This document shows, piece after piece, positions 49,302-60,475 of a stretch of 64,000 nucleotides of DNA. Numbering within the stretch: the stretch's first letter is position 1; each line of letters begins with the position of its first letter. Both the position numbers and the translations under genes were made by a program. A model generated the notes under the pieces. That model ran no database searches, had not been told where the DNA came from, and saw nothing but the letters and a program-made list of their open reading frames with translations. Source of the DNA: a virus (lineage: Duplodnaviria > Caudoviricetes); IMG/VR virus record IMGVR_UViG_3300028591_000096; one strand, given 5' to 3'.

Positions 49302-49763
49302 ATGAAAAAAAGAAGAAGTATAAACGAAAGTACTCTGATAAGCGGAGGATACGGATTTGTAGGAGGTGGTGGATATGATAATACACTTTCTCCTGCATCT
49401 TATAATGTTCAGGGTAAACAACCTGGATATGTATATTCTATTTTACCAATGACTGACACTCTTCAGCAGAAACCTAACAAAATAGAACATGAATATTATA
49501 TTCATCCTGGATGTACAGTAAGGGGTGTAGGATATAATAATAAAGACAAACATTATACTGGTATTGTAAACAGAATTGTAAAGAATGAAAATGGTGAGGT
49601 TGTTTGTCTTTATGTTCAATCATTCAAAACAGCAAAACTTGTAGCTGTCAGAGCCGACGAAAACCTTGAACTAATTCTCCCGAAAGGTCTTGATCAATAT
49701 GGAGGACACAGATTGGCCACAAGTGATAACTTAGATATACAAAGAAAAAGCCTGAATGTTTAA
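49302..49763 (+). CDS. Hypothetical protein
   Basis: 153 aa; MKKRRSINES start. Confidence 0.65.
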   Translation: MKKRRSINESTLISGGYGFVGGGGYDNTLSPASYNVQGKQPGYVYSILPMTDTLQQKPNKIEHEYYIHPGCTVRGVGYNNKDKHYTGIVNRIVKNENGEVVCLYVQSFKTAKLVAVRADENLELILPKGLDQYGGHRLATSDNLDIQRKSLNV

Positions 49764-50707
49764 TTCAGGATTTCTTTTTTCAATTCATCGAACATTTGTT
49801 TTGGTTCTTTATTGTCTATCGCAACAAATTTCTTATGATTTTCGTTTGATAAACCATATTCTTTATTAGACGTACCCTCGTTTTCATTTACTTCTGGTTT
49901 GCTATTTTGTTCGATAAATTCATCATTATTTTGAGTTTCCTTATTATTAACCGTAGTTTCTTCAGATTCAATCACATTTTCATTTTCAAAAGGAGTGATT
50001 TCTTCTTTGTTTTCATGTTCTTCTTCAGGTGTGATATCGATATCATCTTTAATTAAATCTTCATCATTTGAATTATTATTTAAAGTTTCATCTTTATCAT
50101 TATCTAAATTTATCTGTTCTTCTTTTTCGTCAGAAACATCTGGAATAATAAATGGAACTTCAGGTGTTTTCTTTTCATCTTCAGTCAATTTATGATTTTC
50201 AATATGCTTAGTTGTTGGTTCAGTTATTATCTCATTTTTATGATCATCTATCATTTGCGTTTCATTGATTCCATTTGAAACCATTTCTGTCATCAGCAAT
50301 GCAACAATAGGAAGAATAGCACCCATAATCCATGATATAATCACCTGAACAGTTTCCTGACTCACTTCCTCTATCATAAACAACATAGGTTTAGCAAGAT
50401 AGTTATAGTAATCATATCCAGATTCGGATATAAACTTAAAAACCGAATATGTATTACCTATTACCTGAACTAAAACCAATATTGTTAGCAATAACCATGC
50501 TATATTGTTTCTCTTGTTTATTCCTATAATAATAGAAGCAAGACATACAGCCAATCCTAATTCAAATGCAAATGCAAGCATTATAGACATCCAGTGAGTG
50601 TTACCTATATCAAAGAATTCTATAGCATGACAAAATGATATAAACGCTACAAGAGCATAAAGAAAAAGAAAAGCATATATAAATATTTTATTTATTAACT
50701 TCTTCAT
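49760..50707 (-). CDS. Four-TM membrane protein with long acidic tail
   Basis: Four hydrophobic helices in residues 1-140, then an E/N/D-rich region. Confidence 0.7.
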   Translation of the reverse strand: MKKLINKIFIYAFLFLYALVAFISFCHAIEFFDIGNTHWMSIMLAFAFELGLAVCLASIIIGINKRNNIAWLLLTILVLVQVIGNTYSVFKFISESGYDYYNYLAKPMLFMIEEVSQETVQVIISWIMGAILPIVALLMTEMVSNGINETQMIDDHKNEIITEPTTKHIENHKLTEDEKKTPEVPFIIPDVSDEKEEQINLDNDKDETLNNNSNDEDLIKDDIDITPEEEHENKEEITPFENENVIESEETTVNNKETQNNDEFIEQNSKPEVNENEGTSNKEYGLSNENHKKFVAIDNKEPKQMFDELKKEILN

Positions 50708-51030
50708 TATTTCTTACCGTTGTTTGTATTGTTTACACGAACAATAACTGGTTTATTTGCAAGCTTATTGTTCTGTTCCTTATATATGGAAATTTCGTTG
50801 TTAAGTGATGCAATTTCCTTATTTAGAATCTTCATTTCATTATTCAGACTATCTATATGATTAGATGCATTACTGAATACATTTGTAAGCGAATCCTTTA
50901 CATACTCTGTCTGTTGGACTTGCTTTTCGTATTTTCTTTTATAATTTCCTTTACTTGTACAATTTGAAACAAAAAGTATCGCAAGTAAAACTATAAGTAT
51001 CTCTTTCCAATATTTTTTAATCTTGTCCAT
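50707..51030 (-). CDS. Membrane-anchored coiled-coil protein (spanin-like)
   Basis: MDKIKKYWKEILIVLLAILFVSNC then heptads; late motif at 51054-51062 supports the 51030 start. Confidence 0.55.
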   Translation of the reverse strand: MDKIKKYWKEILIVLLAILFVSNCTSKGNYKRKYEKQVQQTEYVKDSLTNVFSNASNHIDSLNNEMKILNKEIASLNNEISIYKEQNNKLANKPVIVRVNNTNNGKK

Positions 51031-51064
51031 AACATGAAAATATTTGTTCCTTCTATTTATTAAC

Positions 51065-51101
51065 AAAAGGATCGATCCTGTTTTATAAGATCGATCCTTT
51101 T
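51065..51101 (-). terminator. Intrinsic terminator
   Basis: AAAAGGATCGATC...GATCGATCCTTTT. Confidence 0.8.
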
Positions 51102-51102
51102 A

Positions 51103-51357
51103 TCATTTTGGAAAATTAAATCCGCTTGTTATAGAACTTGGTGTTAAAGAACCCATCTTTGTTGTAACCTGTGAAATCTGGCTTTGTATGTTTGAATATT
51201 GATCCTGCGGATTTCCATATTGTTCATCGTATTCGGCTTGTTGTTTTTCTTGTGCTTCCCTTTCGTCCTTTACAAATGCTTCATATCTGTTATAAAGCAT
51301 CATTATATCGTAAAAATACATCTTGCCCATTTCCATAGGGTTGATGTGAAGCTTCAT
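51103..51357 (-). CDS. Baseplate hub assembly protein, T4 gp51-like (frame open to 51438; probably made as a frameshift fusion)
   Basis: LHINPMEMGKMYFYDIMML..FVKDEREAQ pattern; directly follows the gp26-like gene. Confidence 0.65.
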   Translation of the reverse strand: MKLHINPMEMGKMYFYDIMMLYNRYEAFVKDEREAQEKQQAEYDEQYGNPQDQYSNIQSQISQVTTKMGSLTPSSITSGFNFPK

Positions 51358-51376
51358 TGCGAATACTAGTTCCAGT

Positions 51377-52405
51377 TCAACATATTGAGAGTAACGGATT
51401 TGAAAGCACGAAAAGAGAGCGGATACCTCCTCGAAAGGTTAAGGGGATTTCCACTTCCCCACCATCCTCGTTGATATATTTTATTTTTGGTTCGGTTGCG
51501 CCACTAAGTTTTTCTGTAACATATGCGAGTACAGACCATTCTTTAACGTTCCATAGACGTGAAGCTCCTACCATTTCCTCGTATGCTCTCTGACTTAACC
51601 CTCGATAATCCTTGATTAACATAGGGGCATATGTGATGAAATCTTCATCGTAACCCTCCTTTGCATTTATCTTCTGTGCTACATATTTCTTCAACCAATC
51701 GTTTACACCAAGCGAAGGAACATGAATTTTCATAGTATTTCCAGCAACATTGAAAATGAAACATTTATCATCTGGATTATAGAACTTCATGATTTCATCA
51801 GGAATCTTAATGAAATCAATCATTTCCTTAACAACAGGAATCTGCTTATCTTCTGAAATTGGAACCATAAGCTCATTCTCACCATCAATAAATGTAAATT
51901 CCTTGATTGCAAGAAGAATGTAGAATCTGTCGACATTCTTAAGATCCTTCCAACAGTTTCCTGGATAATTAGGATTCTTTACGTTACAACATTTCTCAAT
52001 CATATAGTTAAGAATATCATCAACTCTTGAAAGTTGGTTAATATCCTGATCATTCATTGTTGACCAGTGTTTGATTTCCTCACCTCTTGCAGCACGTATA
52101 CTTATTTCAAATCCATCTGGATAGAATAATCCCTGTGTAGGAAGAGTCTTAACATCAACCTTAAGCCATCCAATGTTATCCTTGTATTTTAATCCAGAAC
52201 CGTTTCCAGTTACAGGAGTACCTTCTCTACCATGTGTTCTGTTTTCTCTTGCTATTTCAGCCATAGATTTATATTCTGGTGCTTGTGGTTCAGCTGGTTG
52301 CTGTATAACCTCTACAGTAGCATCATTAAAAGGACTCTCTGTTATAGGAGTTTCCTCTGATGCAACATATGCACTCATTAAATCCTCTTCAGTTTTCTTC
52401 TTCAT
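51377..52405 (-). CDS. Baseplate hub subunit/chaperone, T4 gp26-like
   Basis: LPTQGLFYP, ISIRAARGEEIK, DRFYILLAIKEFTF, TFRGGIRSLF. Confidence 0.7.
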   Translation of the reverse strand: MKKKTEEDLMSAYVASEETPITESPFNDATVEVIQQPAEPQAPEYKSMAEIARENRTHGREGTPVTGNGSGLKYKDNIGWLKVDVKTLPTQGLFYPDGFEISIRAARGEEIKHWSTMNDQDINQLSRVDDILNYMIEKCCNVKNPNYPGNCWKDLKNVDRFYILLAIKEFTFIDGENELMVPISEDKQIPVVKEMIDFIKIPDEIMKFYNPDDKCFIFNVAGNTMKIHVPSLGVNDWLKKYVAQKINAKEGYDEDFITYAPMLIKDYRGLSQRAYEEMVGASRLWNVKEWSVLAYVTEKLSGATEPKIKYINEDGGEVEIPLTFRGGIRSLFVLSNPLLSIC

Positions 52406-52436: not shown

Positions 52437-52465
52437 ATTATACGTTATTTTATCTAAAATGATTA
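52437..52465 (-). promoter_or_regulatory. Bipartite promoter TAATCATT-N13-CGTATAAT upstream of the gp26-like gene
   Basis: Third copy of the motif. Confidence 0.75.
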
Positions 52466-54409
52466 AATAGAATAAATAAAATCAAACATTGAACTTACAG
52501 TTCCATCCTCATTATATGCAACAATAGACATCTTTCTTTCTTCTTCTGATACAGCAAGCATCTTGTTAATCATGGATGCGTTGAAATTGAATTCAAGTTC
52601 ACCAACATACAGATTCATATTTGTAGAGAATGTAGGATCAATAAGATTATTATTACCACCTTCATCCCTGAACAATAGTTTATAATACCCGTTAGACATA
52701 TCCATATACGAATATGTACCGTTGTTACCAAGAGTCTTAAATACAAATTTGTAAGACTTTGGAGCCTGGCTTACATTAAGCGTGTAGTTATATTCACCAT
52801 CCACAACATTACCTTGATCATCAAGTACAACCTCTGTCGAATTATAGAAAACTTTTATGTATTTTGTCTTCTGTACACCGTTCTGATTCTGTATATTCTC
52901 GTGTTTATGTTCAATAATTTTATTGTATATCTTATAAGGGGTAAGATCGGCAATCTTCAAACTTGTCCCCTTTACATAGTATCTTGACATGTTTCCATAC
53001 AATGACAAAGTTGAAATTTTAACAAACTGAATCTTATCATGTGCGTTTACAAGTCTCATCGTATATACAATTTGAACGTTATCTATATACATACCTACAG
53101 ACTCATCGAATATAATAGGTCTATAATAGAACTTATTAGGATCAGTATCATTAACAAATATCTGAGTCATTGAGTAAGTTTCTTCCTTGACAACATGATC
53201 TGCCATACAGAATGAACATTTTATCTCATGTATGACAAGCCATTTCTTCATATCATATTCAGGTTCATAATCATCACCAACCTCTTCATCATAATCATCT
53301 CTGATTAATGATCGATCATAAAGTCTTATACCTTTATTGAACGACCATACTGTATTAGCTGTTAATGGTTTATCTCTCCATGTTGCGTAGAATATAAGAT
53401 ACGGCATATCATTACATTCAGAAATATATGCTCCAAGATTATCAGAATTAAGATCAACTCTAGGAATAATTCCGTTAAGAATAGAAGATCTTGTAAAATC
53501 AAGAACAATATTATCCGTATCTATATCTGGAAACTCAGTCTTATCTGCATTAGTATACTCGTTTCTATCAAGAATCCTAGTAGACATGTCATCTTCTGTG
53601 ATATACGCAAAACTTAACTTTATCTGAGTATCATCATTTATGTTCAGTGCATTGAATAGCTCAGTATCATAATGTTTATGATTATATCTGTTCTGTATAA
53701 GATCCCATACACAAGCAACATTCACCTCAATGTATCTGTCATATATGTTATTACCGAACATCGTTGGATTTATTGAGAATTTACAAAGCTTGTAGAATGT
53801 TGACTTGTTGATGAATATGTCACATAAGTCAATAAGTCTGTCAGTCTCTATGACTTTTCCAGTACTGTCCTTTATATCGTTTCCGCTTACAGATATTCTC
53901 ATATATATGCCATAGATATTACTGAAATCATAACCGTTTACAAAATATAATCTAGCAGAATCCCATCTTACATCAGTGATATTTGAATAATAATGCTCAA
54001 GTGGTGCTGAATTATTGTTGAACGGATTAAGCATGTGCTTTTCATACATCCTTGCTTTGATCTGATTGTAGTATATATCGTTCATTATGCTTTCATCTAT
54101 ATACTTATAATCTGGATCAAGGAAATAGAAAAACATTGAATCTTGAGCATCAGACGGTACCACTGTATGGTTAAGTGTATTTATAGATAAAGGATTCTTC
54201 ATGATCTTATACTTGTCATTACTTTCCTCGTCTATAGTCTTAACACACTCATATGAAATAGGTGAAAACAAAAGCGTGTGATTATCCTTCAGCTTTGTAT
54301 ATATAAAAGACGTTGGGTTTGACTCGTCAGCATTGTTTGGACCTTCATGCATGACATATTCAAACATCATAATATCGCTAATCTGTAAAAATCTACTCTT
54401 CAGTGCCAT
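52463..54409 (-). CDS. Hypothetical structural protein
   Basis: 648-aa beta-rich ORF in the tail/baseplate region. Confidence 0.65.
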   Translation of the reverse strand: MALKSRFLQISDIMMFEYVMHEGPNNADESNPTSFIYTKLKDNHTLLFSPISYECVKTIDEESNDKYKIMKNPLSINTLNHTVVPSDAQDSMFFYFLDPDYKYIDESIMNDIYYNQIKARMYEKHMLNPFNNNSAPLEHYYSNITDVRWDSARLYFVNGYDFSNIYGIYMRISVSGNDIKDSTGKVIETDRLIDLCDIFINKSTFYKLCKFSINPTMFGNNIYDRYIEVNVACVWDLIQNRYNHKHYDTELFNALNINDDTQIKLSFAYITEDDMSTRILDRNEYTNADKTEFPDIDTDNIVLDFTRSSILNGIIPRVDLNSDNLGAYISECNDMPYLIFYATWRDKPLTANTVWSFNKGIRLYDRSLIRDDYDEEVGDDYEPEYDMKKWLVIHEIKCSFCMADHVVKEETYSMTQIFVNDTDPNKFYYRPIIFDESVGMYIDNVQIVYTMRLVNAHDKIQFVKISTLSLYGNMSRYYVKGTSLKIADLTPYKIYNKIIEHKHENIQNQNGVQKTKYIKVFYNSTEVVLDDQGNVVDGEYNYTLNVSQAPKSYKFVFKTLGNNGTYSYMDMSNGYYKLLFRDEGGNNNLIDPTFSTNMNLYVGELEFNFNASMINKMLAVSEEERKMSIVAYNEDGTVSSMFDFIYSI

Positions 54410-55512: not shown

Positions 55513-56268
55513 TTAATTTAACTTAACTGTGTCTGAAAGTATTTCCTTAAAATCTCTCCCAGCTAATGTTGAAACACCAGTAGGATATTTAGTATTAAGC
55601 TCAGTTACTATTTGTTGCAGCACACTTATAAGTTTCTCTCCTTTTACTGCTGTTGCTGCTGCATTTTCTCCTAACATGATGCTGCTTGCATTTACATTTG
55701 CTGTTGGTGCATTGATGTTAACTGTTGCACCAGCTGCTATGTTTATCTCTCCATTAGCATTACTTCCTCCCTCACCAGTAGTTGCTATATTGATATTATA
55801 GTCGTTAACTTCTATTACGTTGCTATTATTTTTATGTTTGAGTTGTATTGATCCGTTAGCATCAATAAGAATCATTGATCCTCCGAGCCACATCTTATAC
55901 CCAGTCATTGGCTGATATATAACTATAAGATCCTTTTCTGAATCATATAGCATCACATGTGTGTTCTGATAATCGTCTTTTATCTCATCTATCAGTGCTG
56001 GATCAATATTTTGTATGTTGCTGTATTCACCAGAATATATATTACCAAATGGGAATCTTACTCTAACTATTGTTCCAACTTTTGGTATTGATATATTGCC
56101 AAAACCGTTTCCGCTACTGAATATTGTAGATGATTGTGGTGTAAACCATGGTATGTTTTCTATTTCAAATGTATCAAATAATCCAAAAACCTGCACTTTA
56201 CATCTTCCAGAGAATGTGGGATCCTCATTGTATACAACTCTACCTAAAAAGTCCTTGCTTAAATCCAT
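55513..56268 (-). CDS. Baseplate central spike, gp5/gpV-like (OB fold plus beta-helix, no lysozyme)
   Basis: FLGRVVYNEDPTFSGRCKVQVFG, IPW, SIPKVGTIVRVRF. Confidence 0.85.
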   Translation of the reverse strand: MDLSKDFLGRVVYNEDPTFSGRCKVQVFGLFDTFEIENIPWFTPQSSTIFSSGNGFGNISIPKVGTIVRVRFPFGNIYSGEYSNIQNIDPALIDEIKDDYQNTHVMLYDSEKDLIVIYQPMTGYKMWLGGSMILIDANGSIQLKHKNNSNVIEVNDYNINIATTGEGGSNANGEINIAAGATVNINAPTANVNASSIMLGENAAATAVKGEKLISVLQQIVTELNTKYPTGVSTLAGRDFKEILSDTVKLN

Positions 56269-58238: not shown

Positions 58239-59870
58239 TTATTCAGTTTTTTTATCTTTTGCTATAGCCTCTGGTGCTGGCCATTCTCTTCTTTTTAAAA
58301 CGTATTTTGTTGTATACGGTGAAACTCCTTCGTTGAATATAGGGTTGTATACATATTCAACACTGTCTACAATATAATATCCAGAATAAAATTTATTAAT
58401 CTGTCTGTGCTCATCGTTACCTGTTGCATTATTGTACATATCATTTTCAAATGAGTTTGTGAAACCTATTATAACAGGTATTCTTTCACCTTTCATTATC
58501 TGTAGATTTAGACCTTCACATACAACTTCTAGATACATTTTATTTAATTCATTGATATTCTGTGTATTATGATATGGTGCTCTATTGTAGTTTTTATGTA
58601 CGTTTCCAGACCACTCGTTTGGATTTTTTGTTTTATCATCATCGCTCATTACATATTCAACACCAGTCCATTCTGCTCTGTTATATGTTCCTATGTATTC
58701 ATGATTTACACGTGCCTGTTCGTTATCTGGATTTTTACCAGCTTCATATTTTGCTCTACCTCGAAGAAGTATGAACGAATCGGTTTTATTTTGATCATAT
58801 GCTGGAATGTTAGTAAGTTCTTCAAAACAATCATAATCCCCGCTATTAATTATATTCTGGTTATGCTTGAATGTAAAACTGGATGTACTGTATCCAGTTG
58901 ACATTGATATAGCTGATGATTGATTTATAGGATTCCATCTTCTTATTAAGAATGGTGTGTTTTTAAATTCTGACATTGTTGTAAGAACTTTAACTGACAT
59001 TCTTGCACTACCCACAGATGTATCAGTGGCTAATTGATTATACATATTCATGATATTCGTTGCAAAAGTAATATCTACATCTTCTTCATTTTCCGTAGAT
59101 AGAAGAAATTTGTTAACGTTTACAAAGCAGATGTTATAGTATAAATCAATCCATGCTTTAAAGAAAGATGTTTCGTTTTTCCACGAATGACTAATAACGT
59201 TTTCTATAAAAGTTTGAGTTGTTTCCCTACATTGTATCCAGTTCATGAAATCATCCGTATCATCAAAATCATTATATGCAAATCCTAAACCGAATTTTTT
59301 TGCAATCTCTTTCATTACAAACTTACTTGAGCCAGCAAATGCATCAATTGAAGTTCTTGAATCAAAAGCCTCTATAAAAAGCCTACCACTAAGTGATATA
59401 CTTGAACTCATTTCACCCCTTGTTGCATTAAATCCATTACAGTTTGTTATTACAAAATCATCTCTTAAATATGTAAGAGCAGCAGTATCAACACGTATGA
59501 ATATAGAAATTATATCTCCATCCTTTGGCATGTTTTTACTGATGAAATTAACATTTTCAAACATAAGATTTAATGATATTGTAGGCATAAATCCATCCAT
59601 TGATAGTGTCATTGATCTTATATTAGATCTTGATAGTATCATATCATTGATTCGTATCATAGGATAAACGAGACCAAGTTCGTCCATCTTTTTGTTTCCA
59701 CCTTGTTCTGTGGTTGGATCTGGTCCGTTATCTATAGACATTTCATCAAAACGTATAGTCTTATGAATTTCTGAGTCTTCAACAAGCCTCACGATATTGG
59801 AAGATTGTATATCTTGTGATTGATTATAAGATGAAGGTCTATCTGTTATGTTATTTAATATTAATTTCAT
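58239..59870 (-). CDS. Baseplate hub protein, gp27-like
   Basis: Position, plus KDGDIISIFIR, FFKAWIDLYYNICFVNV and FYSGYYIVDSVEY patterns. Confidence 0.6.
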   Translation of the reverse strand: MKLILNNITDRPSSYNQSQDIQSSNIVRLVEDSEIHKTIRFDEMSIDNGPDPTTEQGGNKKMDELGLVYPMIRINDMILSRSNIRSMTLSMDGFMPTISLNLMFENVNFISKNMPKDGDIISIFIRVDTAALTYLRDDFVITNCNGFNATRGEMSSSISLSGRLFIEAFDSRTSIDAFAGSSKFVMKEIAKKFGLGFAYNDFDDTDDFMNWIQCRETTQTFIENVISHSWKNETSFFKAWIDLYYNICFVNVNKFLLSTENEEDVDITFATNIMNMYNQLATDTSVGSARMSVKVLTTMSEFKNTPFLIRRWNPINQSSAISMSTGYSTSSFTFKHNQNIINSGDYDCFEELTNIPAYDQNKTDSFILLRGRAKYEAGKNPDNEQARVNHEYIGTYNRAEWTGVEYVMSDDDKTKNPNEWSGNVHKNYNRAPYHNTQNINELNKMYLEVVCEGLNLQIMKGERIPVIIGFTNSFENDMYNNATGNDEHRQINKFYSGYYIVDSVEYVYNPIFNEGVSPYTTKYVLKRREWPAPEAIAKDKKTE

Positions 59871-60475
59871 TATTTACTGTTTTTTAATGCTGAATTTAAG
59901 AATTCACCTAATGATGTTCCGTTTGTTGCACAGTTTACAATAGATGAATCTACTTTTGTTATCTGATCGTCAATGTCACCAAAATAAATCTTTCCATCTT
60001 TTATTGTTAATCCAGTATCTCCTGTCTTTGATATATTTGCTTCAGAATCTTTATTAGAACTAGGAATACTGATATTAACTTTATCTGATCCTGGTTTTTC
60101 TGGAACTTTGCTTTTATCTATGTATTTGTGATAATTTTTCACAGCGTCAAATACACCAGTATTATCAATTTCTGCATCTTTTACTGGATTATATATGTCT
60201 GACATCGATGCACAGTATATAAGATCATCTTTTTCTATTGCAAATGGGTTGTTTATTAATGAATATTTTAGTATCATTTCTGTATAGTCCGTAGTGCCAT
60301 AAAGTACATATGAGACAAGATCTGGTCTCATTTCATACTCTTTTCTTACTTTGTATACGCTGCAAATTTGAGTCATTGCTTTGTTTGGATCGAATATTCC
60401 ATCAGCAAGATCTATAACGTCGATACCTTGATCTATTTTGTATGTTCCTTTTGAGTCTAAAGTTCTTGTAAACAT
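59870..60475 (-). CDS. Baseplate wedge protein, gp53-like (LysM-related)
   Basis: YEMRPDLVSYVLYG...ILKYSLINNPF. Confidence 0.8.
   Translation of the reverse strand: MFTRTLDSKGTYKIDQGIDVIDLADGIFDPNKAMTQICSVYKVRKEYEMRPDLVSYVLYGTTDYTEMILKYSLINNPFAIEKDDLIYCASMSDIYNPVKDAEIDNTGVFDAVKNYHKYIDKSKVPEKPGSDKVNISIPSSNKDSEANISKTGDTGLTIKDGKIYFGDIDDQITKVDSSIVNCATNGTSLGEFLNSALKNSK

Follow-up and report, generated by a model that had tools for sequence, protein, structure and literature searches.

The 64,000-nucleotide stretch of viral DNA analyzed here (IMG/VR record IMGVR_UViG_3300028591_000096; Duplodnaviria, Caudoviricetes; hereafter the window) carries on its minus strand two consecutive open reading frames (ORFs), ORF-A and ORF-B, the second in the +1 frame relative to the first. 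Comparison of this junction with those of relatives makes it highly probable that a programmed +1 frameshift at UUU_CGA, close to the end of ORF-A, yields two proteins from one gene of a huge gut phage: the product of ORF-A itself and a fusion of 433 amino acids (aa) that continues into ORF-B. An earlier note on this DNA had proposed such a shift at ACC_UUU_CGA, and the junctions of the relatives uphold the proposal: homology of the downstream product begins well ahead of the ORF-B ATG, as judged from alignments and third-position variation, and the TTT-C is kept, or relocated instead of lost. The length that the note gave for the fusion was also reproduced on recomputation (323 residues plus 110).

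Coding in the +1 frame ahead of ORF-B

The +1 frame had been described as open for 27 codons ahead of the ORF-B ATG without any ATG, GTG or TTG, and both the coordinates and the reading were verified (Table 1). At the site, the ORF-A frame reads ACC TTT CGA GGA GGT and the +1 frame CCT TTC GAG GAG; the TAA that closes the +1 frame just upstream sets the 5' limit for a possible shift. In the overlap, frame 0 encodes the tail of ORF-A and frame +1 reads E-E-V-S-A-L-F-S-C-F-Q-I-R-Y-S-Q-Y-V. Seen from the window by itself, the open +1 frame is unremarkable and not significant, as 16% of the 26-codon +1-frame windows inside long ORFs of this AT-rich genome contain no stop. In-frame TTT_CGA occurs once in the 34 long ORFs (18,432 codons; 0.6 expected), and this sole occurrence is the proposed site. 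The significance of the junction therefore comes only from comparison with relatives.

A protein search with ORF-A returned 221 homologues, the best 120 of which are 226-376 aa long. The nearest named relatives are Prevotella Lak megaphages (38-44% identity), followed at greater distance by the LR756500-3 huge-phage assemblies, Flavobacterium phage MaF61, Chryseobacterium phages MA9V-1/2, Tenacibaculum phages PTm1/PTm5 and Sphingomonas phage PAU. Sixty-nine loci from phage records, IMG/VR and metagenomes, together with four more, gave 55 distinct junctions (41, 22 and 10 clusters at 90, 70 and 50% identity, respectively, over the C-terminal 250 residues), which span Lak-A/B, LR756500, rumen, gut and marine contigs and the cultured phages MaF61, MA9V-2, PTm1 and PAU. 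All 55 have an ORF-B homologue in the +1 frame of ORF-A, and in all 55 this frame is open from one in-frame TTT_C/T within ORF-A through the end of ORF-B, twice only on the assumption of a recoded stop: TAG has to be read as sense in Lak-B5 (L001) and TGA in L017. The spacer is longer in L013 and the Lak phages, but the frame remains open across it and leads into the ORF-B domain seen in the other junctions (hidden Markov model [HMM] E 6e-20). A scan of viral contigs added one further ordinary junction, L074.

Public annotation of the cultured relatives treats the pair as two genes; the GenBank records of MaF61, MA9V-2, PTm1 and PAU list two separate hypothetical proteins. ORF-B would then start at ATG 51357 in the window, 19 nucleotides (nt) beyond the ORF-A stop, or at the next Met in relatives, perhaps coupled to ORF-A termination, and the open frame would be incidental, as the chance expectation for a single 26-codon window allows. 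We consider two ordinary genes quite unlikely. The called Met is a Met in 8 of the 24 sequences of the closest group and Leu or Lys in the others, six junctions (L008, L030, L035, L036, L043 and L051) hold no ATG, GTG or TTG from the site to codon 35, within the conserved core, and ATG is absent from the first 45 codons of L012 and L018 and from the whole ORF of L024 and L025. As these alignments show, ORF-B has no conserved start codon. The same picture emerges from a profile search with the +1 product, which retrieved 400 cluster representatives at E<=0.001 among 1.84 billion representatives: the best 150 of these are 70-180 aa long, bar two spurious ones, with called first residues at profile positions 1-39. 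Such scattered starts are what gene callers give when no real start exists. The long profile matches P0218 and P0277 were rejected as ORF-B relatives, being MBG-repeat surface proteins; the longer ORF-B-family proteins P0227 and P0284 might start independently.

The sequence ahead of the called Met is, moreover, conserved as a +1-frame protein with third-position variation, which speaks against two ordinary genes. Over +1-frame codons 20-34, the 15 codons from the ORF-A stop to the first widely shared Met, summed column entropy amounts to 11.75, 5.47 and 23.22 bits at codon positions 1, 2 and 3, and within this stretch every difference between the window and L029 is a synonymous change at a third position of the +1 frame. 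The AlphaFold model of the 110-residue +1 product has a predicted local confidence (pLDDT) of 76-90 from residue 11, and its helix 15-28 runs across the called Met27. ORF-B is predicted to form a helical domain, whose C-terminus has a conserved end of the F-x-x-P-K-I type. The family comparison shows the +1 frame to be coding from inside ORF-A; by the same comparison, the stretch between the ORF-A stop and the called ATG is +1-frame coding sequence and no intergenic spacer.

Conservation of the overlap in both frames, which the note had proposed as a check, was found: the 0-frame tail F-R-G-G-I-R-S-L-F...L..C and the +1-frame segment F-S-x-F-Q/K/R-I are both kept. F324, G326, G327, F332 and L338 are invariant in one alignment (A1); in another (A2, 26 sequences), G326, G327 and F332 are invariant and F324 nearly so. 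Judged by these patterns, the short product and the +1-frame continuation are both under selection, and since the 0-frame tail is conserved as well, both products are probably made. No in-frame fusion of the two parts was found among the best 120 of the 221 ORF-A matches, in a search for longer proteins carrying the +1 product, or among the best 150 of the 400 profile matches.

An overlapping ORF-B translated without fusion from a non-canonical start (e.g., AUC or CUG) within the overlap is very unlikely. The +1 frame does contain an invariant ATC (Ile12 of the +1 product) as well as CTG/CTC codons, and the window clade has no Shine-Dalgarno (SD) requirement by which to judge a start. However, the invariance of ATC follows from coding in two frames, the 0-frame reading being Asp/Asn-Pro, and no candidate codon is conserved across the deep lineages. 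Such a start would also leave unexplained the selection of TTT_CGA described below and the +1 frame that often opens exactly one codon ahead of the TTT.

Codon choice at the putative slip site

The stretch in which a shift is possible, from the last +1-frame stop to the ORF-A stop, contains a single in-frame TTT_C in every lineage; the marine clade has T in place of C, within a run of seven T (ATT TTT TTG). Among junctions with the F-x-G-G architecture, the Phe at the site is TTT in 46 of 46, compared with 48% TTT at the other Phe of the same genes, and the next invariant Phe, eight codons beyond the site, is TTC in 36 of 37. The Arg that follows is CGA in 27 of 31 cases, CGT in two and CGC in two, but never AGA or AGG; elsewhere in the same genes CGA accounts for 2.6% of Arg codons (2.6-4.2% away from the site for the window clade) and AGA plus AGG for two thirds. 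On both sides of the site, Pro, Leu, Thr and Gly are each encoded by three to six different codons. The site TTT of L056 is the only TTT among 13 Phe codons, and in most relatives the site CGA is the only CGA of the gene. The comparison thus shows nucleotide-level selection of TTT_C and CGA, which two ordinary genes would leave unaccounted for.

The window fits this pattern. CGA, CGC, CCG and CCC, which the note had listed as rare codons of the overlap, are among the rarest of the window (24, 16, 27 and 4, respectively, of 18,432 codons), and the region is locally GC-rich, as stated (GC 0.52 at 51410-51469 against roughly 0.3-0.4 around it). CGA occurs at 1.3 per 1000 codons and the corresponding +1 codon, GAG, at 17.2 per 1000, a 13-fold difference. 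No tRNA genes are present in the window. In most relatives, a stop (TAA or TGA) closes the +1 frame at the equivalent place. This stop is built from Leu-Thr or Leu-Asn codons and lies, in most lineages, one codon ahead of the slip codon, so that the +1 frame opens exactly at the site.

Loss of the site Phe goes along with relocation of the motif. In L011 and L017, Ile-Pro replaces Phe-Arg and a new TTT_CGA stands eight codons on, with a 0-frame tail one residue longer; in L011, a TGA in the +1 frame shortly after the original position precludes a shift there. MA9V-2 has no Phe at the first position and ATT_TTT_CTA at the second, likewise eight codons on, and in MaF61 one Phe reads TTC_CAA, with CAC_TTT_CGA following ten codons later. 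The site is TTT_CCC in PAU and TTT_CAA in PTm1, and the natural variants across the family comprise CGA, CGT, CGC, CCG, CCA, CCC, CTA, CAA and UUU_U. Neither independent initiation of ORF-B at its ATG nor the incidental openness of the frame would explain a TTT_CGA that moves in this way.

Comparison alone limits the shift to 51436-51380, and a +1 shift elsewhere in the 19-codon overlap, at CUU_U of Leu331-Phe332 (51415-51410) in the manner of prfB or at the stop itself, would also give a fusion. Leu331 (Leu +7) is CTT in 26 of 26 sequences, compared with six codons used for Leu upstream of the site; furthermore, ORF-A ends in CTT_TAA in L003, L018 and L013 and in TTT_TAA in Lak-A/B. We nevertheless regard another site as unlikely. 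The ends of the window clade, TGT_TGA/TGT_TAA, cannot slip, Leu331 is replaced by Ile (ATT/ATA) in 11 sequences, and a downstream shift leaves the selection for a rare CGA right after TTT unexplained. When Phe324 is lost, it is a new TTT_CGA or TTT_CTA that arises, and no new CTT_T. For the window clade, TTT_CGA is thus the only candidate that explains its codon-level selection.

The note had also pointed to an inverted repeat, GGGGA-N8-TCCCC, just upstream of the site. The repeat is present, but its role as a signal did not hold up: it is not conserved, and the region folds no better than shuffled sequence. RNAalifold over 21 lineages gave 0 consensus pairs, the window region had z = -0.26 against shuffled sequence, and the repeat follows from Gly and Pro codons. 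The GGAGG beyond the site encodes the conserved Gly-Gly and does not accompany relocated sites.

Slippage of RNA polymerase, which would add a base in part of the transcripts so that the fusion is made from edited mRNA, is extremely improbable. It would suit the run of seven T in the marine clade, but in the window and in most lineages the runs reach no more than T3 at the site and T4 at CTTTTC. Transcriptional slippage is known from far longer runs than these (review PMC5009743), which makes it implausible here. An alternative genetic code as the link between the two ORFs was rejected as well, as the window has very long ORFs under table 11. Recoding of TAG, as in Lak phages, cannot join the ORFs because ORF-A stops at TGA and the +1 frame is closed by TAA, and reading TGA as Trp in frame 0 leads to a TAG five codons later.

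We therefore return to a programmed shift at UUU_CGA as the preferred explanation. Most ribosomes would read ORF-A to its TGA, releasing the 342-aa form. A fraction would stall while the A site holds the rare CGA and tRNA-Phe occupies the P site on UUU, whereupon the tRNA would move one base downstream to UUC and translation would continue in the +1 frame with GAG as the next codon. The pairing with UUU involves a G:U wobble, and the overlapping UUC would be a perfect partner for tRNA-Phe. The resulting 433-aa form would consist of the first 324 residues of ORF-A, a short linker, the F-S-x-F-Q-I segment and the helical ORF-B domain.

Several findings weigh against this interpretation. All support for the +1 shift is comparative, and from it we infer the ribosomal nature of the event, its exact site and efficiency, and the chaperone role. 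Neither a conserved RNA structure nor an SD-like element at the correct spacing was found in the junction region of the relatives. The A-site codon is the common CAA/CAG in Lak-A/B, LR756500, L012, L018 and PTm1, so that a "hungry codon" explanation does not cover the whole family; three of these CAA/CAG lineages end ORF-A in CTT_TAA or TTT_TAA, which might be the real shift site there. Finally, the ATG at 51357 of the window would allow some independent start of the 84-aa ORF-B.

Possible departures from the standard genetic code were seen in some of the genomes compared. The ORF-A homologue of Prevotella phage Lak-B5 (L001:1486-2590) has three in-frame TAG in its N-terminal part, and one TAG in the +1-frame spacer stands at a position that is a sense codon in Lak-A1, a distribution consistent with TAG reassignment. 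The +1 ORF of L017 (IMGVR_UViG_3300001598_000072; L017:2437-2800) has an in-frame TGA at a conserved Trp of its relative L011 (M-F-*-Y-D against M-Y-W-Y-D), and homology resumes beyond it; TGA may stand for Trp in this phage (code 4). The ORF-A homologue at L012:1498-2403 has no ATG near the conserved N-terminal region, and its first ATG leaves 215 of 302 open codons. A different locus, L075:1893-2180 (IMGVR_UViG_3300028388_001502), has an unrelated-looking 246-aa ORF ending in ...L-N-F-F-W-P-D-A, followed by a 96-codon ORF that is likewise in the +1 frame and open from ahead of the upstream stop. It may be an analogous arrangement in another phage group.

Table 1. Coordinates of the two ORFs and of the elements at their junction in the window
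Feature	Position	Strand	Remarks
ORF-A, 0-frame product	52405..51377	minus	342 aa, TGA stop
ORF-B, as called by ORF finder	51357..51103	minus	ATG 51357, stop 51105-51103, 84 aa
TAA closing the +1 frame, one codon ahead of the slip codon	51441-51439	minus	
Proposed +1 shift site ACC_TTT_CGA	51439-51431	minus	UUU 51436-51434, UUC 51435-51433, CGA 51433-51431
Putative dual-coding overlap, 19 codons	51435..51377	minus	both frames coding, as judged from conservation
Stretch from ORF-A stop to called ATG	51376..51358	minus	coding in +1 frame, as judged from comparison: E-L-E-L-V-F-A
Inverted repeat GGGGA-N8-TCCCC	51460-51443	minus	present, not part of a conserved signal

Protein family and gene neighborhood

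The label "gp26-like" that the note had given to ORF-A stands as a remote relationship, in that the relatives and the predicted structure place it as a remote member of the T4 gp26/gp51 (PF12322) baseplate-hub assembly family. The Pfam model PF12322 (T4_baseplate; gathering cut-off 24.5 bits) covers both T4 gp26 and gp51, which are paralogues, and is passed by the homologues of LR756500 (29.2-30 bits), L018 (28.1 bits) and PAU (gp93; 33.7 bits). The AlphaFold model of ORF-A (pLDDT 78) gave 38 matches at E<=0.001 in BFVD, including proteins annotated as "baseplate hub subunit", "baseplate hub assembly protein, T4-like" and "baseplate hub assembly chaperone" (E 9e-7 to 1e-4), and PF12322 is present in 22 of the 30 Atlas clusters nearest to ORF-A. 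The BFVD relatives include proteins of 370-475 aa (438 aa in Achromobacter phage Motura, 384 aa in Ralstonia phage phiRSL1 and 430-453 aa in unnamed ones), and Atlas has a PF12322 cluster whose members are 431 aa long. Such proteins could represent in-frame long forms.

A tail-chaperone fold is also hinted at. Residues ~55-185 of ORF-A match HK97 2ob9 (Z 5.7, 89 residues aligned) and, for the same region, 3fgx (Z 5.0) and YqbN 3klu (Z 4.5), all of them weak matches, although tail-chaperone structures make up three of the top four among 48,161 chains. Sequence searches revealed no solved structure, and Foldseek against the PDB returned nothing at E<=0.001.

This placement, too, has evidence on the other side. 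Searches of Pfam and PHROGs yielded nothing useful for the window's own ORF-A and ORF-B; ORF-A of the window has no PF12322 match at E<=1, and HMM, hmmsearch and hhalign comparisons with T4 gp26/gp51 were not significant. The tail-chaperone matches, with modeled folds at low Z (4.5-5.7), speak weakly and are not convincing on their own. No tape-measure gene was identified next to the pair.

The companion label, "gp51-like" for ORF-B, was not sustained. T4 gp51 is a full-length paralogue of gp26, and ORF-B has only a motif resemblance to its C-terminal tail (K-L-x-I/V-N-P-x-E...F-Y-x-I; hhalign E 0.059, insignificant). An Atlas search with the +1 product reached unnamed small viral clusters and one Phage_tail_T cluster at 0.84, too low to mean anything. 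A related motif also occurs within ORF-A. At residues ~193-214 (51764-51829), the sequence I-D-F-I-K-I-P-D-E-I-M-K-F-Y-N resembles both the ORF-B core K-L-H-I-N-P-M-E-M-G-K-M-Y-F-Y-D-I (51298-51354) and the T4 gp51 tail K-L-L-V-N-P-D-E-I-F-T-F-Y-Q-I. To go by the residues alone, the likeness between ORF-A and ORF-B may reflect an internal duplication or a shared binding motif.

Five complete genomes have one ORF-A homologue each. In the window, the gene lies in a baseplate module, beside a gp5-like OB/Phage_base_V protein (55513..56268); a wedge/gp25-like protein is encoded at 59870..60475, and both are on the same strand as the pair. The 648-aa upstream ORF (52463..54409) was considered as a tape measure and has no family or structure match. 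Genes downstream of the pair encode small membrane or coiled-coil proteins. Directly downstream of ORF-B (49760-51066, minus strand) come first a 119-aa protein that combines a hydrophobic N-terminal segment with a coiled coil and gave weak matches to Rz-like spanin PHROGs (E ~0.02), and then a multi-pass membrane protein of 315 aa. Neither would usually be expected beside a baseplate module.

Comparison with known recoding and assembly systems

Frameshifting in lambda gpG/gpGT and in tail-chaperone genes is reported to have been described by Levin in 1993 and by Xu, Hendrix and Duda in 2004. The frameshift of the tail-assembly-chaperone genes is conserved, with lambda gpG/gpGT as the example (review PMC5009743). 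The ORF-A/ORF-B pair shares with it a morphogenesis gene whose two forms are both conserved and never resolved into an in-frame fusion, and an N-domain whose fold weakly resembles the HK97, YqbN and 3fgx chaperones. Unlike lambda, the shift would be +1, not -1, and no XXXYYYZ heptamer is present at the junction; the protein, three times larger, is of the T4 gp26/gp51 family (PF12322) instead of Phage_TAC, and it lies in a baseplate-hub module where an adjacent tape-measure gene was not identified. By analogy, G/GT-like behavior of the pair is plausible. As in G/GT, one partner in the growing hub or tail core might be bound by the shared N-terminal part and a second one by the additional C-terminal domain, which a fixed minority of the molecules would carry.

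UUU_CGN is an established +1 site of influenza A PA-X (UCC_UUU_CGU) and of plant amalgaviruses (PMC5052127). The junction studied here has an identical core motif: P-site UUU would give way to UUC, a rare CGN Arg codon would occupy the A site, and RNA structure is not evident. The known cases concern eukaryotic ribosomes and RNA viruses, whereas here a double-stranded DNA phage is involved whose bacterial host is presumably Prevotella or another member of the Bacteroidota, and part of the phage family has CCN, CAA, CTA or UUU_U in place of CGN. Neither a UUU_CGA +1 site of a phage or bacterium nor a gp26/gp51-family frameshift is mentioned in the literature searched, whose coverage was incomplete.

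Bacterial ribosomes are known to make a +1 P-site slip onto a U-rich codon in prfB (RF2), at CUU_UGA. The window site would be alike in this slip and differs from prfB in having the sense codon CGA, no in-frame stop and no SD-like element 3 nt upstream, its GGAGG lying downstream of the site. Among phages, +1 shifts are known in Listeria PSA/A118/A500 (CCC_UGA, CCC_UCC) and in the chaperone of haloarchaeal HSTV-2, and ~350 forward shifts are annotated in actinobacteriophage chaperone genes (PMC5009743, PMC10885494). These likewise affect structural or assembly genes and place a slow A-site codon beside a re-pairable P-site codon, but they differ from the present case in slip codon, protein family and phage group. 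The compact signal proposed here, UUU plus a rare CGA with no RNA structure, comes with natural variants and relocation and would be testable on bacterial ribosomes.

In T4, gp26 and gp51 are hub assembly chaperones, and gp51 is essential and absent from the particle (PMC3004832). ORF-A falls into the same family through Pfam matches of its relatives and its predicted structure. Of the two T4 proteins, gp26 is the short form (208 aa), and gp51 (249 aa; PF12322+PF28602) adds to a gp26-like part an extra C-terminal domain of ~48 residues, PF28602 of newer Pfam releases. Distant ORF-A relatives have a 0-frame tail similar to that of gp26, C-x-x-C-G...G-L-K-x-F-F-E-L-L. The T4 proteins come from two divergently transcribed paralogous genes and no frameshift, in contrast to the single gene per genome found here. 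As a hypothesis, the short form would correspond to gp26 and the frameshift form to gp51.

Joining these comparisons, we tentatively suggest, as a possibility that falls somewhat short of an even chance, that T4 gp26/gp51 is the unlinked equivalent of G/GT and that Lak megaphages, Bacteroidota jumbo phages and PAU do the same from one gene by a structure-independent UUU_CGA +1 shift. For annotation, the pair matters in that all four cultured relatives checked have the small ORF annotated as a hypothetical protein of its own and its called starts are inconsistent across this family of huge and jumbo phages. If true, the joint reading would represent the first use of the PA-X/amalgavirus signal by a bacterial ribosome and would extend the rule of a chaperone plus a frameshift-extended chaperone from the tail tube and tape measure to T4-type hub assembly. 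It would also suggest why T4 needs two paralogous hub chaperones, gp26 and gp51, and point to a two-form chaperone at a fixed ratio as a general requirement.

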